From NCBI GenBank assembly GCA_004431415.1, contig QPMI01000626.1, positions 186,001 through 250,000 on the forward strand: a stretch of 64,000 nt of DNA. The letters are read 5' to 3'. Within the stretch, counting starts at the first letter, position 1. Each line of letters starts with the position of its first letter. Under the pieces are notes generated by a model. That model searched no databases. It was not told the DNA's origin and was given only the letters and a program-made list of their open reading frames with translations. This DNA comes from Cyanophora paradoxa CCMP329. Taxonomy: Eukaryota; Plantae; Glaucophyta. A program made the translations under genes and the position numbers. Of this stretch, positions 33,801-59,109 are shown piece after piece.

Positions 33801-33806
33801 CCCGCG
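33801..33806 (+). other. 6-bp target-site duplication CCCGCG (second copy at 58361-58366)
   Basis: The same hexamer directly flanks both TIRs; 6-bp TSDs are typical of rve-integrase Polintons. Confidence 0.92.
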
Positions 33807-34712
33807 GCTCGCGGGGTGGACACCCCCACCAATTCCCGCGACCATTTTCAATAAGCACATTTTCAGCATCACGAATCTCAGTCACAAAATCACAAATTCG
33901 CACTGAGCCACATTGTATTTTTCAAACATCTAACTCCTCCTTACTGAAACCAATCACAAAAACCTACATATAATCTTCTCTCTAATCCCTTACCATTTTC
34001 AGTAAGCCTTTATTCCGCCTTCCGATCTCTCAGTAAGGACAGTAAGACCCCTATTTTTACGAAATGTTCCCGATCGTTTCCAAACTGTTTTCAGTTACCC
34101 AAATTGAAAAATCAAGGTGACCCCCACCGATAGCGTAAATCAACATATGAAATGCGTTTATCCCCACTTAAAGATTTCCCGCTATATAGCTATAAAGATG
34201 CCGAGCAATCAACTCCCACTACCCAAAAGTAAGCAATGCACTATCTGCAAAGTAGATAGACCTGCATCGTGTTTTGGTTTGCGTAAATTAAAAACTGGTA
34301 ATGTCGCATTGAATCCAAGATGCATCGAGTGCAACCGCGACTATCACCTTGACCTGTATCACAAAGTCTTAAAAACGCGTCCGAAAATCGAAGTACAATC
34401 GAAGATATGCCCGGATTGCAAGATTGAGAAGCCTGCAAGCGAGTATAATAAAAAGCAAAGTACGAAGGATGGTCTCTACTATAAATGCCGACAGTGTTAT
34501 AGTGAGACTCGGACGAGCTAATTTATGATTTTAAAATGAGATTTATATTTTTTAAAGCAAGTTTGTGCATGAGCAAGCATGCCGAAAATGCCCACCTGCA
34601 CAAACTTGCGCACCCCATCGACAAAGTACGATGATCGACGAAGTACGACGATAGACCACGATTAATCGCAACTGGAACCACTCGCGCCCCGCCCACTATG
34701 CAAGATACATGC
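33807..34712 (+). repeat. Left terminal inverted repeat (906 bp)
   Basis: Begins GCTCGCGGGGTGGACACCCC and ends CAAGATACATGC; reverse complement of 57455-58360. Paired coordinates sum to 92167 at both ends and for the internal ORF, so there is no net indel. Confidence 0.96.
34198..34521 (+). CDS. TIR-encoded tandem C4 zinc-finger protein (left copy)
   Basis: ATG preceded by TATAAAG; two CxxC-K..(K/R)PAS..-CxxC units (CTIC...CIEC and CPDC...CRQC). Confidence 0.75.
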   Translation: MPSNQLPLPKSKQCTICKVDRPASCFGLRKLKTGNVALNPRCIECNRDYHLDLYHKVLKTRPKIEVQSKICPDCKIEKPASEYNKKQSTKDGLYYKCRQCYSETRTS

Positions 34713-34801
34713 CTTTCTTATGCATGATCTATGAAAAATAACAATAAACCCAGTCGTCAGACAAGCTGCCTTGGCTGCGCCTCTCTCATTCTTCGAATTC
34801 T

Positions 34802-35065
34802 TTACATAGGAGCACTCACAGTAATTTCGCTTGCCTTCCGAACAGTCCCCCGATTAAACGCTTGCTCTACAATCGCTTCCTTTGTGAGTGGAATTGGAAT
34901 TCCAGCGGCAATACACGATTTAACTTCTTTGTCCACAATCTCATCAATCGCGATTCTTGCCCTATTATGAGCCGCATTATCGATCCAATCCTGAACAGAG
35001 TAGGCACAGTATTCCATTCCCAGTTTTTCAGTCTCAGTTAGAACTACCTGATAGATGTTCGACAT
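34802..35065 (-). CDS. Small phage-like protein, possibly a fibre assembly chaperone
   Basis: 87 aa with QDWIDNAAHNRARIAIDEIV, a motif I recall from small ORFs next to C1q-fibre genes in aquatic phages; lies directly downstream of the C1q gene. Confidence 0.6.
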   Translation of the reverse strand: MSNIYQVVLTETEKLGMEYCAYSVQDWIDNAAHNRARIAIDEIVDKEVKSCIAAGIPIPLTKEAIVEQAFNRGTVRKASEITVSAPM

Positions 35066-35098
35066 TCTTCTACTTTATGCAGCAGAAATTAATTGAAT

Positions 35099-36067
35099 TT
35101 AATCACTACTTATAAGCTCTCCTGTAAAATAATTAAAAGGAGCAACTACGTTATCTCCATAAATTGATCCACTAACATATAAAGTAACATAATCATTTGC
35201 TGCAAGTGAAATTATAACATCGACAGGAATAAGAGGTCTGTATGAAATAGTGGTTGTCGATACAGAATGACTATATGCAACTATTTTTGTGCCGCTGCCG
35301 TTTTTTCGTATCTCTACTTTTGCAGAGTTATTGTCGTTTAGCCCATTCATTGCTCCAAATGCAAATCTATATTTTCCACTTATCGGAGCTGTGAAAACAC
35401 CAGTTGATGTATTCATGCTTGAATGAGTTAAAAATTGAATTCCAAACGCTGTGATAACACCGGTTGTAACACTGGTGCTCAACGCAACACAGAAACGTGG
35501 ATGGTTCGGAGTAGCAAGATAAGAGTTAGTTCCATTAATACTTATTCCATTCCAGGTGAAGGTTCCAGCATTGGTTGGATTTGTGTATGATGATGTAAAT
35601 GTAGAAGCAATCTTTGCCCCGCCTCTCTTGATCTCAAAATTGTCATTTGCACCCACAGTATCAATCGAATTCGTTTTGATTCCACCAGTGGCTGTAATTG
35701 CTCCATTCACACTCAGTCCAGTCCCAATCCATGCCCCACCACTGTAAACTTGAAAAGCCGCCGAATTCCTATCAGCCGGATTAAAAGCCGTTTTGGAATC
35801 CTGTTGACCTTCATATAGATTATCTTTGGTGACCAGCCCCGAAGATATTGCGGGTCGATTCGATACGATCAGTTCAGTAGCTTTGACGATTCCACCAGCC
35901 TTGTCGGCTCTGAGTTCTTTGACTCTGAGTATCGTGTTTTCATTAAAAGAATCGGTTTTCGCTGTCTCAGTCGAAGGGAATGACTCGTTTAGATCATATA
36001 CAGTGTGTTGCACGTTATGGACAGCACTGGCTGATAAGGAAAACACAGGCGTGAACACAGTCGACAT
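35099..36067 (-). CDS. Fibre/receptor-binding protein with C-terminal C1q (TNF-like) domain
   Basis: STGVFTAPISGKYRF, IRKNG, LAANDYV and FTGELI are C1q-domain hallmarks; beta-rich, G/T/S-rich shaft. Confidence 0.85.
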   Translation of the reverse strand: MSTVFTPVFSLSASAVHNVQHTVYDLNESFPSTETAKTDSFNENTILRVKELRADKAGGIVKATELIVSNRPAISSGLVTKDNLYEGQQDSKTAFNPADRNSAAFQVYSGGAWIGTGLSVNGAITATGGIKTNSIDTVGANDNFEIKRGGAKIASTFTSSYTNPTNAGTFTWNGISINGTNSYLATPNHPRFCVALSTSVTTGVITAFGIQFLTHSSMNTSTGVFTAPISGKYRFAFGAMNGLNDNNSAKVEIRKNGSGTKIVAYSHSVSTTTISYRPLIPVDVIISLAANDYVTLYVSGSIYGDNVVAPFNYFTGELISSD

Positions 36068-36087
36068 CTTTTGATTGTTCTTTATTA

Positions 36088-39000
36088 TTACGTGAGAATA
36101 TTATTGTTTTGGAGAGGTCCGACAGCAATCCAATGGAGTTTAAGCGTTCTTTCGTTTTGTGGCACATTCGTATAATTGATCGCCGAATAACAAGTAAATA
36201 TAGCAATCCAGGTGAATTTATTTTTGAAACCAACACGGTTCCCACTCACAAATTCAGCGGAGATATATATGCTATTGGTGAAATCGACACTCGTTAAAAT
36301 AATACTGTTTTCGAGAGTAGCATTAACTATTGGATCACTATAATATGGGGTAGAAAACGTAACGGTTCCTGATGCTGTAAACACTTGCCCTACTGTATAA
36401 ACTTGATTAGGTATAACTACATCCGCTGTCCCTGTTGCACATATGCATTTGCATTTACATAGCTACCGAAATTCGTGAGCAACTCGATGCTGTGATTGTG
36501 AGTAGGTGGCGAAGTAGGTGTGTTTATCAGATCATCATAATTTCCACTTGTAGCCACAGCATGTAGGTTTGGTGTGTTTATCAGATCATCATAATTTCCA
36601 CTTGTAGCCACAGCATGTAGGTTTGGTGTGTTTATCAGATCATCATAATTTCCACTTGTAGCCACAGCATGTAGGTTTGGTGTGTTTATCAGATCATCAT
36701 AATTTCCACTTGTGGCAACAGCATGCAAATTCGGCTTAGTAAATAACCTATCCCATGTCCCATTGAAAGGAAGTGTAGATTCTGATATAATTACACCTTG
36801 ATCAATCCAACGAGGTATATAGCTTGTGAAATCGGGAGGATTTACAAGATCATAGTAATTTCCTGTGTATGCTACACTACTCCAAGTAGGCTTCTCAGTA
36901 ATATCAGTCCATTTACCACTAAATCCCGCCGGGACATCTGTGAGTTCTTTGTAGCTCACCTTTTGTTTTGGTATCGACAGCTCAATGGGCGAGAATGCAC
37001 CCAAAAGCTGATTTTCAGAGGTGAAATACATGAGGTTTTGACTGTTAGGGAAGTCATCCACGACGTTAAAGGTGGAATTCGTGGGTAATTCGAGGCGACT
37101 GATTGGGGTGTTTGGATCTAATACATATTCAGCACCAAGGTGGACAACAGGAAATGTTTGATCATTCGGAGTAGTAACAAAGAAATTAGAAGCATGCACA
37201 TCACCTGCCACAGTTCCACCTGTTAGTGGTAAATAATCATGATCGTGTGAATCAGGTGGATAGGTCGATGGGGGATTGACAATATGCTCCCAGAAATGCT
37301 TGTGAACATTGGGTAATTCAAGTCGACTAAATGGAGTGTTTGGATCTAATACATATTCAGCACCAAGGTGGACAACAGGAAATGTTTGATCATTTGGAGT
37401 GTCCACATAGAAATTCGGAGCATGCACATCACCTGTGAGAGTCCCGCCTGTAAGGGGTAAATAATCCCCAAGAGCCGACGTTAATTCTGTATCTGTTACA
37501 TAATCTTCAAGAATTGCTGCAAGTTCTGTATCGTCTACATAGTTTTTACTTTCGAGGTAATCATCTGTTACCACACCTGAAAGGGTTGTATTGTGTAAGT
37601 TTTTAGCCGCCATTCTCTGATTGACTTCTAAGGCGCCACCTGTTGTTGTTTTAATCCACGCCATCTCGCATTTTCCGTGATCATCTGTGGGTTGTCCCAC
37701 AACAGGAAGATAGTTTACAACTTTCTCCCTTGTGAACACAATCTTAGGTCTTGCTCCATCATATGCGCTTTGATCCGTTACATTTACTTGAATTGCTGCT
37801 GAAAAATCCGCTTCTTGTCCTATTTCTCCTGGGTGATAATTCGTAACATAGATACTGGGGAAAGTATCATTTACTCCTACATTGAAATCGCCACTATACA
37901 CTCCGTTTACGATTGGATCCCTGGGTAATCTTACAGCAAGAGTTCCCACCATCGGTGTGCCTGTTTCACCTGTAAACGACCCATTCAGACTAACATAATG
38001 ATCATTCAAAAATAGCCTTTCAGGTGTATTAATCGATTGGTAAAGTGTGACCCCATTAAAAACATTTCCGATTGCATTCAATTGCGCAAAAACTGGCTGC
38101 TCATCTATTTCCTCCCATGGGTGCCTGTGGTTACTATTGGTAATCTCTGAATAATCATGAGTGTGTTTTCCCGGTGGGAAGGTCGATGGGGGATTTGTGA
38201 TATCTTCCATAAATGCTTATGGGCGAAATCTGTAATATCTGCTTTTGTGTGTTTTTGCTTTGCTAACCAATCTAAAACAACATTCGATGTCGGGTGATTT
38301 GGTAGGTTTGCTTCAATCTTCACAGTGAGATAATCGACTATTACATTACTTCCATTAATATTACTTGCCCATAGGTTACTGCTGTAAATGTTACTTGCAT
38401 AAATGTTACTGCTATAAATATTACTTGTAACTGTAAGGTTTGATGCAATTGTAAGATTAGATGAAATAACACCACCTTTGAGAGACAAGTAATCATGAGT
38501 GTGTGGATCAGGTGGGAAGGTTAATGGTCGATTGGTGATATGCTCCCACAAATGCTCGTGAGAACTGGGTGGATAGGTTAATGGGGCATTGGTGATATGT
38601 TCCCACAAATGCTTGTGAGAATTGGGTAGTTCGATTCGACTAATTGGGGTGTTGTCGCCCAATATAAATTCGGCACCTGTATGCACGACCGGGTTTCTTT
38701 GGATATACATATTTGATGCACCTATTACAGGTGCTATTATGGGCACATCCGAATTAACGAGATTGCAAGTGATGGAGAAAATGGTTTTAGGGGCGAATAG
38801 ATTGCAATCAAAGGTCACAGTAGCTGGATCAATAGTAGGATCGACGTTTGAACAGATCTGAAACATCCACCCACCCACACAGTTGCAATTTAGATTTCGA
38901 AAGACTGTTCCCGCCATTGCATCCACATAGCCAATCCCATTTGCTATGTCATATATGTGACCAAACTCGTAACCAAAAATGTCATTCCACAGGTTGGAAG

Positions 39001-39136
39001 CCATAGCTCCCATCACATACCCTTTTAGATCTACTATCAGGTCATTGGATTCACTGGGTATATTGGCATGGGTTATATAAAAATTATTATCCAATACCGC
39101 ATTCTTTATTGTCGTTTCTACTATGGGTTCAGTCAT
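36088..39136 (-). CDS. Large phage-tail-fibre-like protein (about 1015 aa; two -1 homopolymer frameshifts near 38207 and 36430)
   Basis: ORFs 38105-39136, 36417-38210 and 36088-36384 join on adding one G each (AHKHLW-EDITNPP; QQG-TADVVIP). Contains HxH-W..IT.P repeats, YLPLTGGTLTG, SN pentapeptide repeats, four ATSGNYDDL repeats and a C-terminal gp53/H-lectin-like head (GTVTF...P.V.AT...LHWIAVG). Confidence 0.8.
36518..36735 (-). repeat. 54-bp coding tandem repeat, about 4 copies (PNLHAVATSGNYDDLINT)
   Basis: Unit tgtttatcagatcatcataatttccacttgtagccacagcatgtaggtttggtg repeated almost exactly. Confidence 0.95.
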
Positions 39137-39173: not shown

Positions 39174-42100
39174 TTACATAACGTTTGGAACATGTTCATA
39201 TATTCTCCCTTCTCGCTGTGCCATTTCCGCCATAAAGTCTCTATCATTGTTCATCGTTTGCTCTGCCAATTCTTGTGCTCGTGATTTTTTGGGTGCTGCC
39301 CTATTTGCTGGTGGTCGGTCAGTCCTCACAACACTAAGACCATGCCCTCGGCTGATCTCACCTCTAAGCCCACATCTCCTTCGGCTGTTTGGGTCACATT
39401 AAGCTCTGGTGTTGAGTATTTATTACCTGCTCCTGCAATGGTTCTGTCTATGCAAGCACAACATAAAGCTCGGAATTTGTATGCAAGCACAAGCCAAGAG
39501 CACCGAGAATCGGCAAGAGAATCATAAGCACTAACGTTCCTGGATCTGTTCCCGGTGCCCCGACTGGATTTGTAGGATTCGTGGGATTATTAGGTGGTGT
39601 GTTTGGATCTGGATTAGTTGTAGGGGGATCTTGTGAATCGGGATCTGGGTTAGGCTGGTTCGGATTTGGATCATTTGGTGGCGGCTCTGTCGACCCTGCT
39701 TATGAGGTCGGCGCTGTGTATGCATTTGCAAACACGATGGGAGCCGTCGCTGGATTTCCTGTGGAGGATCCTGAGATTGCACCATAGGTATCTGCGAGAT
39801 ACTTGTATAATTCCTGTGTCACAGGTGGATTGCTCACAGATCGACACACCCAAATATTGCATGTGGTGTCATAGACTGTGTCCCTGATAAAAGGCGGTAG
39901 AGCCGTCCCACTGAATGACTCAAAGAGTCCATTTCGCGATAGCAACCTATGTCCTGTATCACAATTTCCACCCTCAAAATATTTGGTAGCCGAAATCGCA
40001 CCTTGCACATAAATATTGCATGTCGAATGCAATCCAATGTTATTTAGGTTAGGAGTGTATCTGTCATCAAGCCGGACAGTGCACACCCATGGGGAAGCGG
40101 TTTTTATATATTTCTTATCGCCTGCTGTGATCACATCAGTGTTTGGGTGGCTTTCGATTTGGGTAGCAATAGACTCATATTTGTAAGAGTAATAAACTAA
40201 GAGACCATCTGTGGAGGATGTAAAATAAAAGAAGTCTCTCATGAAGTCTGTGGATCCAAAGAAGTCAGCATTGGTCGATGTTAGGGTGACTCTGGGATAG
40301 CTCATGTTGACAGTCTCAGAAGGATATGGAATATATGAGGTGTAATTACGATTGAAAAGATAATAGTGAAATCCATCTGAGACATTCGAGTGAGTGGGCA
40401 AGGTGACTGTTAAGGTCTTACTGCGATTCTCAAACGTGTTCTGTATGACAATGTTGCAAGTATTAATATATCGAGAATCGAAAAAGTAATTATTTGTAAC
40501 TCGATTATCGATCAGAGTCGCATTGGTTCCATTAAATACGAAATTCTGCCCATTTATTCTCGTAGTATGAATGTCGGTAACATCGAGAGGATACCTTATT
40601 TTTAATCGGTCTTCGGGGTCAAATCGCGGAATAGTTCCTGTTGCCTTCCAACTGATAGTAAAGGGAGGAGCAAGGGACACTGCTGGGATAACAGAGAGAT
40701 TAAATTTCGAAAAATACAACCCAACAGGGTATGATGTCAGAGCATATGTCACTGTTGCATTTCCTACAAGTGTAAAGCCGGTGGTTGTTATGTTAGTTGC
40801 AACAAATGGGGAGTAGCCGGCTGGTGCATTTTGAAGTGATGTAGCTGACCCATCATTGACCACATACAAATTCGTGTCTGTTATTTCAATAGTAGGAGGG
40901 GAAACAAATGGTGTCTCAAATGTGAAATTAAAATTCGCTGGAACCCTGCAAGATATCTATATGTTGTTGCTGATATCTCGGATGCCTGGAATACTTTGCT
41001 TCCACTCCGCACTACATTACTTGTGTCTTTCACATTGTGGTATGAGATGCTGGGAGTTGGGGAGAGCACCAACGAAATAGCATCTGGTAAATCAGACTTT
41101 GTTATATACAGTTCTCTGAGAAACTCCTTTCTAAAAGGGGCGGTCAGTTCTCCAATAGTAGCCGATGATCCTGCGACCACAATATTACAGGTGTTTGCAC
41201 TCAAAGAGTAAACTGTGTTCCACCTTAAAGAATTCGCCCCAAGATCGAAATTCTGTGAGAAGGGCACGATATTGCTACCTTGTAAATCTCGGTAAACCTT
41301 TACTCTGGGTTTGCTATCGAATACAGGGCTAATGTAATTGATGTTAAGAGTGAAACTAATAGTAGCTTCGGAACTCAATGAGTTGTTTCGGATGATAAGT
41401 AAATTGTATGTCTCGTTAATGACAAACGAAACCTGAAACCCTGTGGAGGTGACATTTTGGATAAATGCTTTATTAGATTCATTATTGTTATAGATAGGAT
41501 TATAATAAGTAGTGTGATCCACCAATGAAACAGTGGGTATATTCGTCTCGAAACCTGTGACACCCAACTGATCCCAAGTGAATGTATATGTAGGTTTGCC
41601 TACATAAGCGACATAGACCCCATTTGCGAGCTGCTGAGGGTATCCCTCGACAGTGTAGGTCTCAGTTTGCGAAACCGAGCGGGAAAGGTTACTATTATAG
41701 TCGGTGTAGCTGATCAGTGCATTATCACTGGTGAGAATCTGATTAGGTCGGAGTGAGTGATTAAATGGAAGGATTAAATTGGAGGCAAACATGGAAACTC
41801 CATGCACCTCTGACCATCTCAGATTCGAGAGACCAATTCGGTATGCGTTATCAATAGAAGGGTAAATGTTCCTTTTCGATAGAATATGGGCTAAGGTAAT
41901 TGCAAGCGCTCCATCTGCTGCAAACAGAGCATTAATTTCGGATTGCAAAGCGGCGATTTCGGTAGTGTGGGTCGTGAGGGTTCCATCCTGGCTGGAATCT
42001 TTGGTGTTCTTGCTCCTCTCGAACTCCAAAAACGCCTTTACGATGTCCTTGCCCAAAAGATCGTTTATATTGTCTCTGGTAATGTGAACATGGTCTTTTC

Positions 42101-42896
42101 TCAGTGCCTGTTTCTCTGTGGTAAAAGCCGGAATTTCTTCTGCAAATGATATAGTCGTTTTATCAAGTGCTAAGGATCTCACATTCGGAGCATTGGCGCC
42201 AATTATATCGACAACGTTCCCATTTTCGACAATTTCTAAGGTCGGTTTCGCGGGGTCTAATGTGAAAACACCCTCTGTTATCTGGGGAACCGATTCGCTC
42301 TTCTGAATCACAAAGGATTCGATGTTTAGGTTACAGGTTGCGACATTGGTGGCGAAAAACGACTCGGAGTTGAGCGAGTTTACATTTAGGGTATCCGTAG
42401 TGATGTTACTTGCTGTAATGTTACTCGTCGTTAGATTACCTGCTGAGAGATCATGGACGACCTCTACCTTTGTTTTCCGTGTGGATACTCCCGCTATAAG
42501 TGTGCTATTATCCACGATTCTCATAGCTGCATTTTGGAAACCGCTCTCATCTTGAATGAAGAAGTTTAAGCGACCTCTATCGAATGCTTTCGGGATGTTC
42601 CTACGATTATATCGCACCGTTTTCGGTAGCTGGCGGGTTGCCTGAATGCTGGCGACTCTGTTTCGTTCGTTATCATCAAGTAAAAAGTCGATTCCAAGTT
42701 TATGATCCCCTTTCTCGACGTTCATTAACTGCAAAGCTGCGGGTCTGCTCGGTGTTCCACTGACTGGATCTTCGCGGTCTGCATTGAAGTTTATTTTCAG
42801 AGACCCGCGAATTTCAGTGTTTACCTGATCAGTGTCCTCTATCTGAGTGGTCGAATTAATAACTCGTGCATCTGGTCGCGGATTCAGGAACGACAT
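39174..42896 (-). CDS. Large fibre/spike-like structural protein (frameshift near 40944; in-frame TAA at 39700; probable further shift near 39539)
   Basis: True start MSFLNPRP at 42896. Contains NIYPSIDNAYRIG..RW and NIVP..NFDLG..RW fibre motifs, a short coiled coil and two gp53-like segments (TFETPF..PP, N.T.TGF). One added G joins it to ORF 39700-40869; a Pro/Asn-rich frame continues past the TAA. Extent below 39700 is uncertain. Confidence 0.7.
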
Positions 42897-46226: not shown

Positions 46227-46273
46227 GCCCTGTAAATTATTTTCTGATCCCAAAGATAAGAGAAGAAACGCTC

Positions 46274-49196: not shown

Positions 49197-49342
49197 TGGC
49201 TGTGAATATCCGCAAGGCAAAGCTGAACCCGCCCGTATTTAGAGCGGGTCTTTATGTGGACTCCCTTGCAATAGGGACAGGTCGGCTCCATAAACAGCAT
49301 TATAAGTTCGACCAATTCGTAGGGGAACACACGAGCAAGTAA
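49196..49342 (+). CDS. Small 48-aa ORF (MAVNIRKAKLNPP...), below the ORF-track cutoff
   Basis: ATG overlaps the preceding stop (TAATG) and the ORF fills the intergenic gap. Confidence 0.45.
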   Translation: MAVNIRKAKLNPPVFRAGLYVDSLAIGTGRLHKQHYKFDQFVGEHTSK

Positions 49343-49400
49343 AGCCCTCATTCCCTTTTATTTTCTCCGATATTTAATACGTTGCGTCCTTGTAGGATCG

Positions 49401-49959: not shown

Positions 49960-50373
49960 ATGGCGAAACCCAAGATTTCAAACCAAGAGGCAATGGCGGC
50001 ACAGCAAGAAAAGCGCAGACCAGGGCGACCGAAGAAGGTGATCACAGAAGAGGAGAAAGCGGAGAGATTAAGACTAAAACGCGAGAAAGATGCAGAGCGG
50101 CAGCGAAACAAGCATCAGAGACAAAAGCAAGAGCGATTAGCCGCCGGAGAGGCTACTATATTCACACCGGAACAGCTACAAAAGATCGCAATTCGTAAAC
50201 AGCAGCGATACCAAGACGATGAAGAGTATCGGGAGAAAATCCGAGAGAAGGCACGTGAATACCAACGAAGGAAAAGAGCGGAACGCAAGCTGAATCCGCC
50301 GGTGAAGCCCCAGCCGCAAAAGCCCGCTGGAAGACCCCGAAAGCATGTCGTCGAGAACGCAAAAACTTCGTAG
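49960..50373 (+). CDS. Basic AT-hook and coiled-coil DNA-binding protein
   Basis: KRRPGRPKK and KPAGRPRK AT-hooks flank an R/K/E-rich helix. Confidence 0.75.
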   Translation: MAKPKISNQEAMAAQQEKRRPGRPKKVITEEEKAERLRLKREKDAERQRNKHQRQKQERLAAGEATIFTPEQLQKIAIRKQQRYQDDEEYREKIREKAREYQRRKRAERKLNPPVKPQPQKPAGRPRKHVVENAKTS

Positions 50374-50498: not shown

Positions 50499-53400
50499 AT
50501 GGATACAATGTCTCAAATTATAATTAGACCGGGTCAAGTTCGTCATGATTGGCATGAGAGCGAATCAATCTTCTATTTACTCAAATACTACCATGAATTG
50601 GCAGTAGGACTTAAAACTTTCGGCCAAGCATACGAGGTGTTCTTCTATAAGACACCACCAACCCAGGAACAGAAAAGACTAATCCAAATATTTGATGATC
50701 TTGGCGGCAGTATCGATGATGCCTTTATAACTGTTCATGAGGTCGTGATCGATGGGGACGAAGGTGTCGAAGATGACGGAGCCGGTGCTATCCCTGGCAA
50801 TCGCTATGCGTTTCTGGATGAGGAGCTTACGGACAGCATGCGATGCACCGCGATTATGAGCAAATTCACAGACTACACATTAAATCCAAACGCGTCTGAG
50901 TTCGAAGATATTATTGAGCTTCCCAAATCATCGACATCTAACGCTTGCGGCTACGATATGATCATCTCCACATGGGGAGCGTCCATTAAGAAGTGTCAGG
51001 AGGCGCCAAAACCGCGATATACTGACTTAACTATGTCGTACGACGGTCTCTATAAATTCTTTCACGGTCGTGAACGCACACCTGGCGACTCTCTGGCTCT
51101 CACGCTCCGCCACATCGAGAAATTCTGTAAGAGAATTCAGACAGGCTTCCGCGTCTTTGATGTCGACGGAAAGTTAATACACAAATTCGCGGCGGAATCA
51201 ATTAACAAAAACATCTTTCCCCGCAATATTCACTTTATGATTCACAACAAGCACATCTATATATTCAACGATAACATCAAGTCGCTCGAAATGCGCATGG
51301 CAAAGATGGAGGTCGAAGAGCTCGATAATCATGTTCCTAAGTCGAACTCTTCGTTAGCACTCTATAAAATTCCGACGTGTCTTACTCACGATATCTTCGC
51401 GCACACATCCAAGGATTTGTTAAAGATCACGCAACTTAAACTATCGCCCGACGAGCGCAGTTTCATCCGCATTCTGTATACTGGGCGCGAAGGTCTGGAA
51501 GGTCTTCTATTTACGTTCCTGAAAATGCGATATGAACCCGCAGTGAAGCTAACACCATCGAAACAGATCGACAGCATCACATTCAAAGCTAATGGCTCGA
51601 TGTTCTCTATCAAAGATCCACGCACAACAGACCACTTTATTGAGCAAGATTTCGAAACAGAGGAGTATTATAATAAGGTCTGTGAAATCGGGAAGGGATT
51701 CCGCGAGTCGCTTCTAAATGCGACGAATATCTCACATTACAGCCCGAACATGCGCGAAATTCTCACGCACTACAAGCGATCCGCACTAAGCGGCTTTTTC
51801 TATAAGCCGAACCCGAAAGCTACCTACACAGCTGTCGATATGGCGAAGTGCTACCCTTCGATACTGAAAGGCATGCAATATCTTCCGAAATACAATGTGT
51901 TTGATGACTTCGTTCCCTTTAAAGCGGGAAGCGATATTCTCGAATACGCGATCTACTACGTGCGTGTCGTTGCGTTTGAGAGAGAGCAAGCGACTTTCGC
52001 CGACGATGAGGATGTAGATTATGATGCCGCCATGTCTCGCAAGATTGATGGAATCGAAATTATTCTGGATCGCGCATTTTCCGTGAGTGGTCGCTGTTAT
52101 AATTTCATGACAGGCTACACTCTCTCCATGCACTGGGCGGACGTAAAGGACAAGATAGAGATTATCGCGGTCGCGGAGCCTTCGCATTTGGTGCCCAATA
52201 TGTCGATCGCTGAGATGAAGAAAGTGCTTTCAAGTGACATTCAAACCACGGACAAGAAACACATTTTAGTGAAAGAGATCGGAATGCTCGGCAAATTCCA
52301 AGACTCGCAAACATCCACGAAAATGTTCTACAACCGTGCCGAGGCTGAGAGGTTCGCCCAAGAATGCGGAGGAACAGTAGAGGTGTTTACTTTCAATCCT
52401 AAGAATTCGAAACGTGTCAAAACTCTTAGCGAATTCGAAGGTCACATCTATTTCGTTAAGATCAGCTCCCACCGCGAGCTCGTTAACGGATTCCTTCCTA
52501 TCCACTTTCATATTTACGATCGTAACCGCGCTAATATGTTTGCGCAATACAAGCGCCTGACAGCGCGCGGGCACAAGGTTGCCGGGATCAGAACGGACTG
52601 TCTTTATATCGAAGGTTCATGGACAAGTAAGAAAGAGTTCGACCGAAATGCGTTTGAGAACATGGGCAAATTCAGCTATATTCCCGGGAAAAGATGCCCT
52701 GAGAATGCACTCCGCCCACCACGGGGTGTAACTCTCGAATTTCAGGATCCCGAGACACTCATTAACCGGTTCTCGCTGAGGGACGAATTTAATCCGGAGT
52801 GCTTTAATTGGGTTGCGAAGCTCCATAATCGTATGCTTGTCCTTGCTGACATGCCCGGAAGTGGAAAGTCGACACTCGGTATTAACTGTTTCGCATCTCA
52901 AAAGTCAAATTGCTTAGTCATTTGCCCCTATAACAAACAGTGCGCAGAGCTAAGGGACTCTCTCAAAGTCCGCGGAATCGAGAATATTACCGTTCGCACT
53001 TTGTATAATGTTCTCGGGATCCGTGTCTCAAATGATCAGACCTACGAAGAGGCTATGAGCGAAAAAGACCAGAGGGCGTTCGTATCTGAGTTCAGCCACA
53101 TTATGTTCGACGAGATATTTGCGTATTCCGTAAAAGATCTCGCTAAGATCAAGTCGTTTATCGATCGCTATCCGGATATCAAATATTTGGCTAATGGCGA
53201 TACCTATCAGAACGAACCGATTAATGATGAGCTATCGGTTTCTGATCGCAAGGGCTACTATAAGCGCGCTGTGCAGAGCATGTTCCCTAACGTCCTGAGT
53301 CTACGCATTAACAAGCGGCACAAGAAGGAGACAGACCGTGAATTAATTCGGGCGATTAAAGAGGATCTCTTCGAGAACGGACTGGAAGCCGCACAGATTA

Positions 53401-54206
53401 TCTCGAAATACGGGTTGCCGACAATTAATGATCTAAGCGCCATTCCCGACGGCTACTTTGGCATCGCTTACAGAAACGAAATGACCTTAGCCTATAACAA
53501 ACTGATGCACGATAGACGAAAAGTAAATATTGCAACCGTAGAGGTCAACGGCATCAAATTCTACAAGGGTTTGGAGGTCGTTTGTCGCAGGTATCTACGC
53601 ATTTCGCGGTCTGAGGGTGAGTCTATTAACGCATACACGAATTACACCTATCGAATCACCAAAATCACCAAGCAAATGGTCACATTAACTGACGTTTTCG
53701 ATGGCGTCACGTTCGAGGTTCCGTGCGCGATGTTAGAACATTTTTCTCTCCCTTATGCAGGAACAGGTCATTCAACGCAAGGTCTCACACTTGATTCGGG
53801 CATTGTCATTTGTGAGGCTACGTTCCGCTATACCACTCGCGAATGGTTCTATACCGCGCTCACTCGTAACCGCGATCTGTCTACTGTGCTGATTTATACA
53901 CCGATTCACAAGTTCCAAGGAAAGAGTGACTACATCGAGTATCTGAAAGGGAAGATCCGCGGTTACAAATGCCAGGATCAGCGTGCCGGGCGCGATTTCG
54001 ATGAGGCGGATTATATTACGCCGGAGTGGATATTAGAGCGCAAGAAGCAACAGAAGGGCGCCTGTGCGCTCTGTTCCCTTCCTATTCCGACTGAGCCACA
54101 AGATCCGAATTACAAGCTCGTCGTGGATCGCATAAACAACAGGCGCCCACATCTTAAAGACAATTGCCAGCTCGTGCATCACGGGTGCAATTGCAGCAAA
54201 AAATAA
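50499..54206 (+). CDS. pPolB-like DNA polymerase fused to an SF1 (RecD/Pif1/Dda-like) helicase and a C-terminal HNH-like domain
   Basis: PolB motif A DMAKCYPSIL, degenerate motif B K...V..IGMLGK, motif C GIRTDC; helicase MPGSGKST, FDE, GD.YQN.PI, H.TQG.T and YTALTR; C-terminal CALC...DRINN...H..DN...CN. The start may be 50499 or 50508. Confidence 0.88.
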   Translation: MDTMSQIIIRPGQVRHDWHESESIFYLLKYYHELAVGLKTFGQAYEVFFYKTPPTQEQKRLIQIFDDLGGSIDDAFITVHEVVIDGDEGVEDDGAGAIPGNRYAFLDEELTDSMRCTAIMSKFTDYTLNPNASEFEDIIELPKSSTSNACGYDMIISTWGASIKKCQEAPKPRYTDLTMSYDGLYKFFHGRERTPGDSLALTLRHIEKFCKRIQTGFRVFDVDGKLIHKFAAESINKNIFPRNIHFMIHNKHIYIFNDNIKSLEMRMAKMEVEELDNHVPKSNSSLALYKIPTCLTHDIFAHTSKDLLKITQLKLSPDERSFIRILYTGREGLEGLLFTFLKMRYEPAVKLTPSKQIDSITFKANGSMFSIKDPRTTDHFIEQDFETEEYYNKVCEIGKGFRESLLNATNISHYSPNMREILTHYKRSALSGFFYKPNPKATYTAVDMAKCYPSILKGMQYLPKYNVFDDFVPFKAGSDILEYAIYYVRVVAFEREQATFADDEDVDYDAAMSRKIDGIEIILDRAFSVSGRCYNFMTGYTLSMHWADVKDKIEIIAVAEPSHLVPNMSIAEMKKVLSSDIQTTDKKHILVKEIGMLGKFQDSQTSTKMFYNRAEAERFAQECGGTVEVFTFNPKNSKRVKTLSEFEGHIYFVKISSHRELVNGFLPIHFHIYDRNRANMFAQYKRLTARGHKVAGIRTDCLYIEGSWTSKKEFDRNAFENMGKFSYIPGKRCPENALRPPRGVTLEFQDPETLINRFSLRDEFNPECFNWVAKLHNRMLVLADMPGSGKSTLGINCFASQKSNCLVICPYNKQCAELRDSLKVRGIENITVRTLYNVLGIRVSNDQTYEEAMSEKDQRAFVSEFSHIMFDEIFAYSVKDLAKIKSFIDRYPDIKYLANGDTYQNEPINDELSVSDRKGYYKRAVQSMFPNVLSLRINKRHKKETDRELIRAIKEDLFENGLEAAQIISKYGLPTINDLSAIPDGYFGIAYRNEMTLAYNKLMHDRRKVNIATVEVNGIKFYKGLEVVCRRYLRISRSEGESINAYTNYTYRITKITKQMVTLTDVFDGVTFEVPCAMLEHFSLPYAGTGHSTQGLTLDSGIVICEATFRYTTREWFYTALTRNRDLSTVLIYTPIHKFQGKSDYIEYLKGKIRGYKCQDQRAGRDFDEADYITPEWILERKKQQKGACALCSLPIPTEPQDPNYKLVVDRINNRRPHLKDNCQLVHHGCNCSKK

Positions 54207-54398
54207 ACAGGTTTAATTAGAAGAATGTCACGGATCGTTAGAAGGGTAGCGGCGAGGAGACAGAGACCACCATACTACCTATCGCGGTTCCTGAAACTGA
54301 GCAAGTCCCCAAAAAATCACAAAACGCCAAGCAAAATCAAATTTATTAGGAGATGTTCCTTTTAGCATTGCTAACCGTCCTCTAAGATCGTGCGCCGC

Positions 54399-55603
54399 AT
54401 GTATGACCCAAAAACAGGTTTTAAGAACCCATCGGCATTGTACGAAGAGCTGAGAAAAGAGGACAAGACCCTCACACTGAAAGAAGTGCAAGATGTCGCA
54501 GCGAAACAAGAATTTATGCAGATCAACAAGAAGCCCCCGCACCGACCCAAACAGCTTTTATTCCCATCACAGCCCCGCCGTGGTGCTATCAAGCGGATCT
54601 CATCTTTTATCTCTCATATGGCAATTATAATTCCGGCTACATTGCAGTCCTTACTCTCATCGAGATGACAAGCCGAAAAGCATATGCCAAGAAGTTAAAG
54701 AATAAGGAGGGCGCAAGTGTTGCCGCCGCTTTTGCGGAGATGCTCACAGAGCTCCCGGCTCCGATGATTCGATTGGAGACAGATAACGGTTCGGAATTCA
54801 TCGCGAAGGAGTTTCAGGAGGTCGTAAAAAATAATGGAATAGAGCACCGCTTTAAACAGGTCGGAGATCACACTTCTCTGGGAATAATGAATCGCTTTCA
54901 TTTGACCTTAAAAACGATGATAAACAATTACTGTGTCGCTTATAATACAGTTCGATTCATGGACAAATTGGACGACTTCGTTTTCAATTATAATAACACC
55001 ATTCACAGAACCATAGGAATGAAACCCGCAGATGTTAAGCTTTCTGATATGGAGCGGATCCGAGCGGCTATTATTTCAAAGAAGAACACAATCGTAAAGG
55101 ATATATTCAGCGACTTTAAGCCGGGTCTCCACGTCCGTGTATTATTGCCAAGATCAAAGTTTGATAAAGGAGCAACACAAAGGTATAGCAGAGAGGTCTA
55201 CAAAATTGCGGGAAGGAGAGGAAACGCGATAGAGGTGCAAGATGCAGCGGGGAACGTAATGCCGAAGCTTTTTAAGCCGCACGAATTGCAAATCATTACA
55301 GAGGTCGAAGCTGTGGTGGAGCCATCAGGCAACGCAATCAAAGCAGCCGAAATAGAAGCCGCTTCTATCCGGCAGGTTCAAAAAGAAGGCATAGATGTCG
55401 CCGCAAGTGTTCCAAAAGGCGCATTATTGGAAGATCGCGCAGAAAAGACAAAGAGGGCGCTGAGAGAGCTCGCTAAATTAACGATCGCGGGAACTGAGAA
55501 GCTCTCAGAGGTAAACAGTCAGCGGTGGTATAAATCATTCAAGAATCAGAGCGCAAGCTACACAGCCCCTACTACGCGCATTCTTCGGTCTTCTCGTTCA
55601 TAA
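54399..55603 (+). CDS. Retroviral-type (rve) integrase, Polinton c-INT-like (frameshift near 54549; the start may extend to 54225)
   Basis: YDPK.GF N-terminus; restored YQADLI...LTLIEMTSRKAYA; TDNGSEF; GIMNRFHLTLK; YNNTIHRTIGMKP; SH3-like tail G.HVR...FDKG...YS.EVY.I. Confidence 0.92.
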
Positions 55604-55642: not shown

Positions 55643-55956
55643 ATGGAGGGTGAAAGTATTATGTTGATATTCCGTTTGATAAAAAAGACGTTGCGAAATC
55701 CCTCGGTGGAAAGTGGGATCGTGAGAATTCATGCTGGTATGTCATGAAGAAAGATCACCCCCTATGCTCTCAGTTCAAAACTCTAAGCTATGAGCAAGTG
55801 TATCAAAGAAACGTGAAGGTTTACCTCGATATTCCTTATGAATTTAAGGATCAAGCGAAGGCTGAGAGAGCCCGCTGGGATCCCGTTATGAAATCCTGGT
55901 ATGTCATGGGTCTCGATCACCCGCTAATGGGCAAGTTTCCGATCAAGGAGCATTAA
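55643..55956 (+). CDS. Tandem DUF5710-like protein (frameshift near 55653)
   Basis: Two copies of Y.DIP(F/Y)..KD.AK....(K/R)WD....WYV. Confidence 0.8.
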
Positions 55957-55981
55957 ATATATCTGTCGTTTTTTTCATTTT

Positions 55982-56374
55982 TTATGAAATTGGGAACCTT
56001 TGCTCGACCTGTAAGTCCCACTTTCGCACTTTCAGCCTTTCCTGTATGAGATCGTTAATGTCCTGTGCTATACCCATTGTCTTCGCTTCGGCATTTGAGC
56101 CGCATGTAAAGATATCGATCGCTAATAGCCCCTGGTCGCTATAAGAGTGAGCTGTGGCATGCGACTCATCTAATAGAAAGCCAATCGCGAAACCGGGAGG
56201 GGAAATAGAGCCATCGAAAATGCAAGTGTGCTGGTGCACGATGCGCATATTGCGATCTGTGATATATTGCGATAGGTTCGCTGTGATCCACTCGGCGCAT
56301 GCCTCCGGGGACTCGTTGAACGGGTCGGTTATATAGTCGAGCATAACGTGGTAGCCGCGGTATCGGGAATCCAT
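55982..56374 (-). CDS. speD: Prokaryotic-type S-adenosylmethionine decarboxylase proenzyme (pyruvoyl-dependent)
   Basis: G.H.MLD, LLDESH self-cleavage site, H(S)Y and AIDIFTCG; 130 aa. Confidence 0.9.
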   Translation of the reverse strand: MDSRYRGYHVMLDYITDPFNESPEACAEWITANLSQYITDRNMRIVHQHTCIFDGSISPPGFAIGFLLDESHATAHSYSDQGLLAIDIFTCGSNAEAKTMGIAQDINDLIQERLKVRKWDLQVEQRFPIS

Positions 56375-56849
56375 TATTATTTAAGTCGATATTTTTGTGA
56401 GCTATGTGGTTTCGTAGCCGCCAAATCGCGCCCTTTGCGAATCAGACCGCGCCACTTCGTAGTAGTGTAGAACTACTCTATACGCGCGCGGATGCAAAGT
56501 ATGACTAGTGGAGCCCTCCGGGAACGCGCGCCGGCGCTCAGAATGTAGCGGACACCTCCGTTTTCGGGCACTTGTGCAGAAATCGAAGTCGGTCTTTGCT
56601 CCACGGTAGGCTAAGCTAGTCAAAGCATAACCATCATGCCCGGAAGCAAGTTACGAGCACGTAGCAATTGAGAGCGCGCCGAGATCGGCTTCCTGTCCAA
56701 AGTTATGCCCGGAAAACGGAAGGGGGGTCGCCGCCGAGTCGCGATCGCGGTGTTATGGTAAATCAAAGCCGGCGGCTATTATGCTTCTAACTGAGAATTT
56801 GAAAGGTATAACAGACCTACTATAAGGCTTAGTTTCGGCGTAGTTTACG

Positions 56850-57120
56850 TAATGTCGGTTGACAGCGTGATACTGTCGCATAATGTCGGCTGACAGCGTG
56901 ATACTGTCGCATAATGTCGGCTGACAGCGTGATACTGTCGCATAATGTCGGCTGACAGCATCATTTTATTTGCATAATGTCGGCTGACAGCATCATGTTA
57001 TCCCCATAATATCGGCTGACAGCGTGATACTGTCGCATCATGTCGGCTGACAGCATCATGTTATCCCCATAATATCGGCTGACAGCGTGATACTGTCGCA
57101 TCATGTCGGCTGACAGCATC
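56850..57120 (+). repeat. Array of about 9 palindromic 31/32-bp repeats, just inside the right TIR
   Basis: Core T(G/A)TCGGCTGACAGC followed by GTGATACTGTCGCA, ATCATGTTATCCCCA or ATCATTTTATTTGCA. Confidence 0.92.
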
Positions 57121-57454
57121 GACCTGCGAACGAAGGTGCCTGCGGGAGCTGCGTAGGCGAGATCTCACCTATCACATTACGATCAGCCATAGAGTTTATC
57201 ACATTACGATCAGACAACGTAAAAATACTACGCTATCGCATGCTATATGTTTTCGGAATCGCCGCGATGTGATGACCCCGAATATGTCGGTGACGCCGGT
57301 GTATATATGTATATGTCGTGATATGCGAAAAAAAACAAAAAAAACACAAAAAAAGCAAAGTTGTGCGGGATCACACACACGGAGGTTCGGACATATATAC
57401 GAAATATATACATGACTAAATCGTTATTGTTTTCATAGAACTCGCATGTAGTTT

Positions 57455-58360
57455 GCATGTATCTTGCATAGTGGGCGGGGCGCGAGTGGTTCCAGTTGCG
57501 ATTAATCGTGGTCTATCGTCGTACTTCGTCGATCATCGTACTTTGTCGATGGGGTGCGCAAGTTTGTGCAGGTGGGCATTTTCGGCATGCTTGCTCATGC
57601 ACAAACTTGCTTTAAAAAATATAAATCTCATTTTAAAATCATAAATTAGCTCGTCCGAGTCTCACTATAACACTGTCGGCATTTATAGTAGAGACCATCC
57701 TTCGTACTTTGCTTTTTATTATACTCGCTTGCAGGCTTCTCAATCTTGCAATCCGGGCATATCTTCGATTGTACTTCGATTTTCGGACGCGTTTTTAAGA
57801 CTTTGTGATACAGGTCAAGGTGATAGTCGCGGTTGCACTCGATGCATCTTGGATTCAATGCGACATTACCAGTTTTTAATTTACGCAAACCAAAACACGA
57901 TGCAGGTCTATCTACTTTGCAGATAGTGCATTGCTTACTTTTGGGTAGTGGGAGTTGATTGCTCGGCATCTTTATAGCTATATAGCGGGAAATCTTTAAG
58001 TGGGGATAAACGCATTTCATATGTTGATTTACGCTATCGGTGGGGGTCACCTTGATTTTTCAATTTGGGTAACTGAAAACAGTTTGGAAACGATCGGGAA
58101 CATTTCGTAAAAATAGGGGTCTTACTGTCCTTACTGAGAGATCGGAAGGCGGAATAAAGGCTTACTGAAAATGGTAAGGGATTAGAGAGAAGATTATATG
58201 TAGGTTTTTGTGATTGGTTTCAGTAAGGAGGAGTTAGATGTTTGAAAAATACAATGTGGCTCAGTGCGAATTTGTGATTTTGTGACTGAGATTCGTGATG
58301 CTGAAAATGTGCTTATTGAAAATGGTCGCGGGAATTGGTGGGGGTGTCCACCCCGCGAGC
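57455..58360 (-). repeat. Right terminal inverted repeat (906 bp)
   Basis: Reverse complement of 33807-34712; ends ...CCACCCCGCGAGC. Confidence 0.96.
57646..57969 (-). CDS. TIR-encoded tandem C4 zinc-finger protein (right copy)
   Basis: Identical translation to 34198-34521. Confidence 0.75.
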   Translation of the reverse strand: MPSNQLPLPKSKQCTICKVDRPASCFGLRKLKTGNVALNPRCIECNRDYHLDLYHKVLKTRPKIEVQSKICPDCKIEKPASEYNKKQSTKDGLYYKCRQCYSETRTS

Positions 58361-59109
58361 CCCGCGCGACCGAGCGCGCGACTCAACGACTCTGCAAAAA
58401 CGCGTACCTGAAGCTCACTGCGGCTGTGCGGACTGACTCGTGCACCGGCAGCGCGGCCAGGAGGCCCAGGGGCGAGGGCCGGTCAATCTCGAGCCGACGA
58501 GGGTGGGGGAAGGAGCCGGGTCGGGGTGCGACATAATTTCGGGCAGCGGTCGTCGCGGATATTATTCAAGCACGCGCAGAACCCCTGGCAGAACCAGTTC
58601 AAGCAGGAGCGGTCAGGCCAAATTTGCCTGGCCGGCGCTGGGCCGCAGAGCCCGCTGTAAAGCTGCACGGCACTCTGGCATTGCGGACTCGGATTCTTTT
58701 GCTGGCTCACTTAAGCGAGCCACACAAAGGCGCAAAACTGCTGTACAAGAAAAAAGTCAAAACCAGAGGTTAATCGATGGAGAAGACTCGGTCGCCGGGC
58801 CGGGCGAGACGGAGACGGCTGCGACGCCCCCTATAGTAAAGAGAGGCTGAATAATTAATTATAATGATGTCTGAAACACTAACGTCAGAGACGCAAGAAG
58901 TACCTGTGAAACTAATGCGGGCAAGCGAGAAATTTTGAAGCAAATCAAGCAAGGAACCTGGGGACTGCGGGACACACGCAACAGGAAGCTGTCGACTACC
59001 GCACACGAAACGAAGCCGAGATCTAGACCCCCGAAAAATCCGAAGCGGCCAAGCAATTCTCCCCCGTGGTATCCTTTGCCCCCCCCCCCCACCCCCTAGA
59101 CGGCGACTG

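Follow-up and report, generated by a model that had tools for sequence, protein, structure and literature searches.

We found that Cyanophora paradoxa CCMP329 carries, integrated in its genome, a 24,554-bp element that is almost certainly an endogenous polinton-like virus (PLV) of the Tlr1 type, the type being assigned from gene layout and motifs set beside published descriptions of the Tlr1 proteins. [quoted passage not shown] As in Tlr1, the replicase fuses a palm, an SF1 helicase and a homing endonuclease, the integrase is of the RVE type, and the element belongs to a multi-copy chromosomal family. The overall design is already known, with a few unusual extras, and the element, once reactivated, could probably still produce particles.

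Boundaries and integration

All coordinates refer to the window, a 64,000-nucleotide stretch of contig QPMI01000626.1. The element is bounded by a left TIR at 33807..34712 (+) and a right TIR at 57455..58360 (-), which align with 0 mismatches over 906 bp, and by an exact target-site duplication (TSD), CCCGCG, at 33801..33806 and 58361..58366. The original prediction of an endogenous PLV with identical TIRs and an integrase-made TSD is borne out by these ends and by the gene set. The two bases at the outer ends of the TSD are complementary to each other, so the termini can also be read as a 907-bp TIR plus a duplication of 4 bp, but 6 bp is favored because rve integrases leave 6-bp TSDs (PMC12220804, excerpts). 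The GC content drops sharply, as had been claimed, to 44.7% in the element from 67.2% in window positions 1-28000 (57% and 64% in the 5-kb flanks). A recent arrival, also proposed at the outset, is indicated by the 0/906 TIR differences together with a CpG observed/expected ratio of 1.15. In addition, both TIRs have a minority allele at 33935 in common.

Both host-element junctions are found in short reads. Single contigs from each of runs X3 and X10 cover 32500-33835 on the left and 58332-59911 on the right, entering the TIRs by 29 letters with 0 substitutions; this reach is below our bridging threshold of 31 letters, but it is as expected where a 31-mer graph meets a multi-copy repeat. At the left tip, positions 33809-33841 form a predicted hairpin (fold z -3.1, with 2 of 200 shuffles equally good). 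Each TIR holds a 124-aa Cys-rich ORF (34147..34521, +; second copy at 57646-58020) that looks like the zinc-binding portion of HNH/endonuclease VII proteins (PHROGs, E between 7e-12 and 2e-8) and is absent from some sister copies, where contig joints jump 442-491 bases at both TIRs. A 31-bp repeat in 8.5 copies (56850..57117) adjoins the right TIR. No Rfam family was detected in 33000-59000 and no tRNA within the window.

Capsid and packaging genes

The MCP gene (46274..47586, +) encodes a protein 61% identical to full-length P0001, and it is the model of this relative, standing in for the window MCP, that provides the fold evidence (pLDDT 61.7; Foldseek E 1.5e-17). The P0001 model aligns to the PBCV-1 MCP with a VIA Z of 21.5 (rmsd 3.6, 318 aligned), which supports the divergent double jelly-roll first proposed. 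Z scores of 12.0 and 11.7 to the mavirus and Sputnik MCPs, compared to 20-21.5 for giant-virus MCPs, suggest that the protein is not of the virophage type. Only 6 relatives reached E<=0.001 among 1.84 billion representatives, and the MCP alignment had no Pfam and no PDB sequence match. Searches with near-exact peptides of MCP, P0005, P0009, the replicase alignment, SpeD and integrase found no relative's locus in viral contigs, and the same kind of search with the MCP pair found none in metagenome contigs.

The family is already catalogued, since the window MCP is near-identical to C. paradoxa MCPs of Bellas et al. 2023 (PMC10120064, excerpts). In Table S2 of that source, row 102 agrees with window ORF 46660-47586 at 307/308 residues, compared by eye, and row 100 runs unbroken across the frame break of the window MCP. 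Excerpts of the same paper give 366 MCP hits in the C. paradoxa genome (272 + 94) and HHpred values of 92-97% for the sister MCPs, which are likewise truncated in print.

Two penton or minor capsid proteins lie head-to-head next to the MCP gene. Penton 1 (281 aa; 44440..45285, -) matches Nucleocytoviricota and Preplasmiviricota clusters in the ESM Atlas at 0.97, with a low recognition score; these include DUF5901 and a Sputnik V18/19 cluster (26% of members), and no PDB sequence matched. Penton 2 (about 308 aa; 45302..46226, +) is broken as assembled, and its halves match penton 1 by BLASTP (E 0.002 and 1e-6), in agreement with the two pentons originally named; it also matches DUF5901 (E 0.003), on which our literature search found nothing. 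The A32-like packaging ATPase (about 288 aa; 47645..48510, +; one break near 47910) has recognizable Walker A and B motifs, and its C-terminal piece matches Pfam Pox_A32 at 23.2 bits (cut-off 22.8). No capsid-maturation protease was matched by Pfam or PHROG in 24 ORFs (four small ORFs unannotated), and no coding frame contained an adenain-like protease motif. The original prediction took this absence to be unusual; it is the rule in PLVs (PMC5499653; PMC12220804, excerpts).

Replicase and integrase

The replicase (50499..54206, +) is an intact frame of 1235 aa with a putative vOTU - PolB palm - SF1 helicase - HNH order, which is the order in print for Tlr1-like proteins (PMC11161782). The PolB palm was located by motifs at 447, 594 and 697, without a profile match, and DNA_pol_B_2 matched neither the whole protein nor the palm region. 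The helicase part matches a Dda-like helicase (E 1e-13) and RecD, and the C-terminal HNH matches endonuclease VII (E 9e-10). What was first called pPolB is instead a pPolB-palm/SF1-helicase/HNH fusion, and with its fused helicase it appears distinct from the canonical Maverick/Polinton pPolB, which has an exonuclease and no helicase. A putative vOTU protease domain, with Cys150 and His252 as candidate catalytic residues, is probably built into the replicase as well; these residues and the other motifs are kept in P0002. A single-sequence model of residues 1-480 had a pLDDT of 35, and Atlas matches to the vOTU region were unnamed. The first Asp of palm motif C is missing; such palms have been read as inactive (PMC5499653), while the same type of palm has been predicted to be active (PMC11161782).

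The rve integrase (about 460 aa; 54225..55603, +; four breaks as assembled) matches Pfam rve above the cut-off at 51.8 bits. Alignment to HTLV-2 integrase places D, D and N at the catalytic positions, with the Asn codon at 54890-54892, and our literature search on integrase triads found nothing relevant. This Asn may disable this copy.

Fibers and accessory genes

A 322-aa protein (35099..36067, -) with a C-terminal C1q domain (Pfam, 25.1 bits; cut-off 23.7) is a predicted fiber tip. Positions 35040-35651 are at single-copy depth (contig depth 53.7 and 54.2), with loose ends at 35703, and this segment, private to this copy, matches the reads with 0 differences. Other copies differ in this C1q fiber tip region. 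Fiber-like gene B (about 1016 aa; 36088..39136, -; three pieces as assembled) contains phage-tail-like repeats as well as 54-bp tandem repeats and matches a PHROGs tail protein (E 3.5e-7). Fiber-like gene A (about 1065 aa; 39700..42896, -; two pieces as assembled) is presumably a fiber, with a weak Pfam H_lectin match under the cut-off (E 0.023). An in-frame TAA at 39700-39702 parts it from an apparent membrane anchor, a Pro/Asn/Thr-rich stalk followed by a hydrophobic helix (Kyte-Doolittle 19-mer 2.44) and a Cys-containing tail (39174..39699, -), which lacks an ATG of its own upstream of the helix. This stop may disable this copy; no longer relatives of fiber A were found, which is weak evidence. 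A fiber A start at 43277 was rejected because it overlaps patatin, and the start was set at 42896. Antisense ORFs across MCP, ATPase and replicase were not accepted as genes.

The patatin phospholipase (42940..44433, +) matches Pfam Patatin (E 1e-21) and has the motifs GGGSRG, GTSTG and DGC; its C-terminal region, in which Pfam did not detect discoidin, is putatively discoidin-like, judging from a motif and from the patatin-discoidin noted in glaucophyte PLVs, where H-lectin fibers are noted too (PMC12220804, excerpts). A SpeD/AdoMet decarboxylase homolog of class-1b size (130 aa; 55982..56374, -; Pfam AdoMet_dc E 1e-11) has both the ESH self-cleavage motif and DIFTCG and is 32% identical to a cyanophage SpeD; a literature search did not find SpeD together with a polinton. 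The large fibers, patatin and SpeD originally listed are thus all present. The remaining genes are a basic AT-hook protein, predicted to bind DNA (137 aa; 49960..50373, +; Pfam AT_hook 17.5 bits, cut-off 17.4), a DUF5710 protein identified by a domain match (about 104 aa; 55643..55956, +), an 87-aa ORF call with no function assigned (34802..35065, -) and two ORFs of 227 and 144 aa with no informative match (48513..49835, +). Neither an RNA polymerase nor a transcription factor was found among the element ORFs by Pfam and PHROGs.

Giant-virus promoter words were not enriched before starts (TCTA 4/147, with 3.4 expected; TCCGGA 0/8; AAAATTGA 0/2). An element-specific motif, TATTTTCT, recognized post hoc and unlike any of the giant-virus promoters compared, lies 21-42 bases upstream of 4 of the 19 starts, which accounts for four of its five occurrences.

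Copy number and coding breaks

Contig depth inside the element is 2017-2659 in X3 (flanks 79.2 and 55.2) and 1137-1873 in X10 (flanks 40.5 and 28.7). The element/flank ratio of 25-65 is alike in both runs and corresponds to roughly 30-45 related copies per genome. Two presumed-RNA runs, whose RNA nature is a guess, gave 7 and 13 records and an element depth of 2-7, to which we give no weight for or against expression.

The full morphogenesis, replication and integration modules originally described hold in content, with MCP, penton, A32 ATPase and rve integrase all found, but as assembled MCP, the second penton, ATPase, integrase and both fibers are split into pieces; the replicase (3.7 kb), patatin, penton 1 and SpeD are unbroken. 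Each of the 14 coding breaks is one base short compared to the read contigs, and an N placed at each site gives full-length frames. A same-base run was present at 14 of 20 among the insertions listed. These frameshifts are likely assembly errors, since single-base shortfalls occur at the rate of the single-copy host flanks, which differ from read contigs by 2-3 gaps and 0 substitutions per 2.9 kb; host inverted repeat arms have 6 single-base gaps in 2.5 kb. At 38206, 45719, 46155, 46461, 54306 and 54533, the extra base is at full depth in majority contigs of all three DNA-like runs. Because majority contigs, the basis of this comparison, lose variants that are rare, a genuine frameshift confined to this one copy could lie at any single site. 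Element copy and majority contigs differ by 1-2% substitutions. The integrase Asn and the fiber A TAA are substitutions and so are not explained by homopolymer errors; neither is among the differences listed (40 of 473 and 40 of 315). Given these two changes, the completeness and the inducibility proposed for this copy are putative, and missing functions could come from sister copies.

Proposed life cycle and alternatives

We give roughly even credence to a whole cycle in which an integrated Tlr1-type PLV responds to a giant virus. The rve integrase would insert the linear genome, generating the 6-bp duplication, and host CpG methylation would likely keep the element silent until a co-infecting giant virus, the likely trigger, wakes a dormant copy to make particles. 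After transcription, the genome would be copied from its TIR ends by the pPolB-helicase fusion, primed by a terminal protein freed by the vOTU domain or by the terminal hairpin. Packaging by the A32 ATPase would follow, into a capsid of double jelly-roll proteins and pentons of two types that bears long fibers whose tips vary among copies; patatin-discoidin would aid membrane crossing and SpeD would tune polyamine supply. The C. paradoxa genome holds giant-virus insertions, and the alga methylates its repeats and its viral genes (PMC12344493, excerpts), and a giant virus wakes integrated PLVs in Tetraselmis (bioRxiv 2025.10.09.676808, excerpts). The lack of an RNA polymerase or transcription factor ORF counts for dependence on a giant virus. 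Against such a trigger count the unenriched promoter words and the S1H-pDNAP replicase, which excerpts of the same preprint tie to autonomous TsV-S1/N1 and not to helper-dependent viruses.

The same virus might instead be autonomous, relying on host RNA polymerase in the nucleus without a helper and woken by stress or methylation loss. This is somewhat unlikely: going by excerpts of the literature, a giant virus is required by most of the small integrated DNA viruses that have been studied by experiment in protists, and we know of no lytic virus release in this alga. In its favor are a polymerase-helicase of the TsV-S1 type (PMC5499653; bioRxiv 2025.10.09.676808, excerpts) and the post hoc motif before 4/19 starts. 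It is unlikely that the family is no longer infectious, spreading as a self-synthesising transposon or decaying, with this copy defective. The D-D-N integrase, the in-frame TAA, the truncated sister MCPs (PMC10120064, excerpts), the 1-2% substitutions and a precedent in Oxyrrhis OmPLV (PMC12721341, excerpts) point that way; however, the extra base is at full depth at six break sites, CpG is not lost although the host methylates it, the TIRs are identical down to a shared minority allele, and four genes are unbroken.

An assembly artefact, with free virus or a collapsed multi-copy consensus joined to host contigs, is very improbable. Junction contigs go just 29 letters into the TIRs, the frameshifts are those of an imperfect consensus, and Bellas 2023 cautions on false consensus in such regions (PMC10120064, excerpts), but both junctions appear in independent contigs of two runs with 0 substitutions, the TSD is exact, and the private single-copy segment equals the reads.

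An integrated Tlr1-type PLV in some 30-45 near-intact, young copies in a culturable species would open induction, methylation silencing and giant-virus defense to direct testing, and its unbroken replicase of 1235 aa makes a clean test case for whether Tlr1-like palms polymerise DNA. SpeD would add small DNA viruses of eukaryotes to the viruses with a part in polyamine metabolism. A broader reading is decidedly unlikely: a deep, inducible, glaucophyte-centered lineage serving as an antiviral, fiber-diversifying reservoir, with C1q tip swapping, stop read-through, a working D-D-N integrase and SpeD as the first polyamine enzyme in a PLV. Read-through, if true, would yield free and membrane-anchored long fibers. 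Glaucophytes are one primary-plastid lineage, and we know of no cultured DNA virus of theirs; an inducible lineage would be the first experimentally tractable one.

Comparison with known systems

The claim of an undescribed lineage stands in part: we found no paper describing the genome, and MCP relatives are very few, but the MCPs are catalogued, and the C. paradoxa MCP loci of Tables S2 and S4 (PMC10120064, excerpts) encode a capsid protein near-identical to that of the element. For this family, excerpts of PMC10120064 and PMC12220804 give neither a genome map nor a TIR/TSD, and they name no replicase type, no SpeD and no tip that varies between copies; CCCGCG does not occur in the two supplement files of Bulzu et al. 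2025 (PMC12220804, excerpts). The literature holds merely passing mentions of Cyanophora or glaucophytes with polintons or giant viruses, and bioRxiv 2026.10.13.758929 mentions neither Cyanophora nor Tlr1. Not found in print were a PLV that carries SpeD, a C1q fiber tip specific to one copy, a fiber gene cut off from a membrane anchor by a stop in frame, and an integrase whose third catalytic position is Asn. Two pentons and patatin lose their novelty to Trimcap B PLVs, known to have two pentons, and glaucophyte PLVs (PMC12220804, excerpts).

Canonical Mavericks/Polintons (Polintoviricetes) share the rve integrase, 6-bp TSD, long TIRs, MCP, mCP and ATPase, and phospholipase, here a patatin, is frequent in group 2 Polintons and Gosseviruses; the element differs in that no stand-alone cysteine protease and no canonical pPolB match were detected and the helicase is fused to the palm. 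TsV-S1/N1 and the inducible TsV-S2/S3 of Tetraselmis likewise have discoidin, tail-fiber genes and TIR-bounded endogenous copies in an alga, and TsV-S1 has an S1H-pDNAP replicase, but they carry a tyrosine recombinase or none instead of rve, and we detected no MCP relationship. OmPLV of Oxyrrhis marina is similar in its size (about 25 kb), its low GC relative to the host, its many copies and its polymerase-helicase fusion, and it lacks a protease, of which none was detected here; it has a tyrosine recombinase, no TSD, no recognized penton and a fusion named helicase-pPolB (PMC12721341, excerpts).

A close parallel is Tlr1 of Tetrahymena thermophila, which likewise combines MCP, mCP, packaging ATPase and RVE integrase with about 30 copies and a pPolB-palm/SF1-helicase replicase with a C-terminal homing-endonuclease domain, and which has no maturation protease (PMC5499653, PMC11161782), of which none was detected in the element. 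The gene set first called unusual is this published Tlr1 layout (PMC5499653). Compared to Tlr1, the element has HNH, also found in other PLVs, rather than GIY-YIG at the replicase C terminus, and adds two pentons, patatin, SpeD and, in this copy, a D-D-N integrase.

Boundaries and genomic setting

The element spans 33807-58360 (24,554 bp) between two 906-bp terminal inverted repeats (TIRs) with 0 mismatches, with CCCGCG duplicated on both sides, exactly as the original prediction described its TIRs and 6-bp target-site duplication (TSD); the sharp GC shift it reported was also found (44.7% in the element vs 67.2% in 1-28000). Since rve integrases leave a 6-bp TSD (PMC12220804), we prefer this reading to the formally possible alternative of 907-bp TIRs and 4 duplicated bases. 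The first 35 bases of the element form a hairpin (fold z -3.1), and palindromic ends are described in Halocafeteria elements whose replicases are not of the pPolB type (bioRxiv 2026.07.28.741278).

Host introns are short, and GC in the host sequence is 67%. On the left lies an F-box ORF (33284-33535; above the Pfam cut-off), which looks intronless, adjoins a 241-aa ORF (region 32562-33535) and lies 270 bp off the junction. Within the element, a 31-bp repeat array lies next to the right TIR. On the right flank, a spliced host gene (58676-59780, minus strand; joints 59210-59677; introns of 60-73 nt in short-read run X20) has its 3' end just short of the element; its exons, judged by a motif, resemble the C-terminal part of an acid-lipase-type hydrolase. 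A 155-bp tandem repeat (about nine copies, 59767-61309) lies within or adjoins this gene. Elsewhere in the window, a 5.3-kb stretch between 74-bp inverted repeats (24276-29582; 96%) holds 158-bp repeats (28340-28814) and, at 25000-26250, a GC-rich tandem array of 20/40-bp units; it is a possible non-autonomous DNA transposon, with no clear TSD or transposase seen in it. A near-perfect, AT-rich, MITE-like palindrome of 146 bp lies at 23476-23621 (73-bp arms, 96%).

Integration and copy number

Eighteen of 24 short-read runs, all from one organism, carry 64-69% of sampled words, and five of these eighteen (X1, X3, X10, X19 and X20) were compared as assembled contigs. X3 and X10 contigs start in either host flank and continue into the TIR for 29 letters with 0 substitutions, leaving the insertion point unbroken; this reach is below the 31-letter bar for bridging, as expected at a multi-copy repeat. 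Contig depth inside the element was 2017-2659 in X3 (flanks 79.2 and 55.2) and 1137-1873 in X10 (flanks 40.5 and 28.7), a ratio of 25-65 from which we read a family of about 30-45 copies. Because this ratio is similar in both runs, we infer that the copies are chromosomal rather than free DNA, of which contigs cannot reveal the ends. Substitutions between copies amount to 1-2%, and the copies also vary in modules: part of a C1q gene (35040-35651) is at depth 54, left of 35703 the sister copies have a different sequence, and some lack the TIR ORF in both TIRs. The minority allele that both TIRs share at 33935 speaks against a collapsed family consensus.

Broken frames and two substitutions

The assembled sequence breaks the frames of both fibres, the stalk-tail region (39174..39699, minus strand), penton 2, the major capsid protein (MCP), ATPase, integrase and DUF5710 into pieces. 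Among the 24 of 46 indels listed, each of 14 coding sites has one more base in the read contigs, and at six of them (38206, 45719, 46155, 46461, 54306 and 54533) all depth in X1, X3 and X10 carries it; 14 of the 20 insertions listed fall at a same-base run. With an N placed at every such site, the frames reach 1016 aa (fibre B, 36088..39136, minus strand), 1065 (fibre A, 39700..42896, minus strand), 308 (penton 2), 437 (MCP), 288 (ATPase), 460 (integrase) and 104 (DUF5710). Single-copy host flanks differ from contigs by 2-3 gaps and 0 substitutions over 2.9 kb; the two 2.5-kb arms of a host inverted repeat differ by 6 single-base gaps. Because flanks, host repeat and element share this rate (~0.7-1 gap per kb), the 14 breaks are likely assembly errors, although an allele private to one copy may drop from contigs. 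The host repeat (3453-9143; arms 3453-5981 and 6611-9143) also shows 5 substitutions and one 6-base gap between its arms, and is either a recent duplication or an assembly feature.

Two changes are of substitution type and are not explained by single-base gaps: the integrase aligns Asn with the catalytic Glu of HTLV-2 integrase, and an in-frame TAA (39700-39702) separates fibre A from a stalk, hydrophobic helix and tail whose frame lacks its own start. Since neither site is among the differences listed (40 of 473 and 40 of 315), each may be a family trait or a private mutation.

Capsid module and accessory genes

The MCP had one match in a 5.8-billion-sequence set (P0001, 61%), and a search of 1.84 billion representatives gave six relatives at E<=0.001. 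We read the double jelly-roll fold from P0001, whose AlphaFold2 model (8 sequences, pLDDT 61.7) resembles the MCPs of iridovirus and PBCV-1 (Foldseek E 1.5e-17; VIA Z 21.5, rmsd 3.6, 318 aligned); VIA gave 12.0 and 11.7 to the virophage MCPs of mavirus and Sputnik. Five distant relatives (P0004, P0005, P0006, P0007 and P0009; 23-29% to P0001), on metagenome contigs up to 15.5 kb, may belong to this lineage too, whether free or endogenous. Several predicted genes were borne out: penton 1 matches penton-like clusters at 0.97 (ESM Atlas) with penton 2 its paralog (BLASTP), the ATPase is above the Pox_A32 cut-off (Pfam), and SpeD is a 130-aa homolog of class-1b size with the cleavage motif (Pfam, alignment). 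Two pentons are reported for Trimcap B Polinton-like viruses (PLVs; bioRxiv 2026.06.19.733378) and patatin-discoidin for glaucophyte PLVs (PMC12220804). Phages commonly carry SpeD genes, which are also found in giant algal viruses, and some of these act on arginine or ornithine (PMC9992855); we found no literature report of a polinton with adenosylmethionine decarboxylase. Found post hoc, TATTTTCT precedes 4 of 19 starts; as TATTTTCT(CCG), a candidate viral promoter, it lies at 46238, 49359, 49939 and 55617, 21-42 bases upstream of the MCP, orf144, AT-hook and DUF5710 starts.

The lineage had been thought possibly undescribed; a published catalogue already contains its MCP. A Cyanophora paradoxa MCP in Bellas et al. 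2023 (PMC10120064) matches window ORF 46660-47586, by eye, in all but 1 of 308 residues, and a second begins with the window's N-terminal piece and continues across its MCP break; HHpred matched the two to giant-virus MCPs at 92% and 97%, and 366 MCP matches were counted in the genome. Among database relatives with a name, the nearest, P0003, likewise comes from C. paradoxa. Together these matches make this glaucophyte very likely the host. The family is thus catalogued at the MCP level, and the element itself may sit in the deposited data of Bellas 2023 or Bulzu 2025. The remaining weight lies in the glaucophyte host lineage, testability, SpeD, tip variation and the Asn and TAA substitutions.

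Lifestyle and comparison with known systems

The observation itself was confirmed and its interpretation partly supported. We hypothesize, at roughly even chances, that this is a dormant provirus family that host methylation would keep silent and a giant virus would wake, by analogy with Tetraselmis, where a giant virus awakens integrated PLVs (bioRxiv 2025.10.09.676808); in C. paradoxa, repeats and viral genes are methylated and the genome holds giant-virus insertions (PMC12344493). That the family is instead an autonomous nuclear virus seems rather unlikely to us. Unlikely, too, is a particle-less or decaying family with a defective copy in the window, which has a precedent (PMC12721341). 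An assembly chimera is highly improbable, and the junction contigs are unbroken.

The intact replicase ORF (1235 aa) combines PolB motifs A-C with an SF1 helicase and, at the C terminus, an HNH domain. The predicted pPolB therefore stands in its motifs but not in its class: Pfam gave no DNA_pol_B_2 match on the whole protein or palm region, and helicase and HNH are fused to it. The only homolog found, P0002, shares this domain order and Cys150/His252, residues that likely mark a putative vOTU protease domain. No protease was found among element ORFs by Pfam, PHROGs or an adenain-like motif scan, and PLVs usually lack a capsid protease (PMC5499653; PMC12220804); the protease-less claim thus describes something ordinary as regards the capsid protease and is likely wrong for the replicase. 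With its vOTU part putative, the domain order is that of Tlr1-like proteins (TP-vOTU-palm-S1H-homing endonuclease; PMC11161782). Altogether, the element is a Tlr1-type PLV with a catalogued MCP: replicase plus rve integrase is the Tlr1 gene set, and Tlr1 of Tetrahymena thermophila too is present at ~30 copies (PMC5499653).
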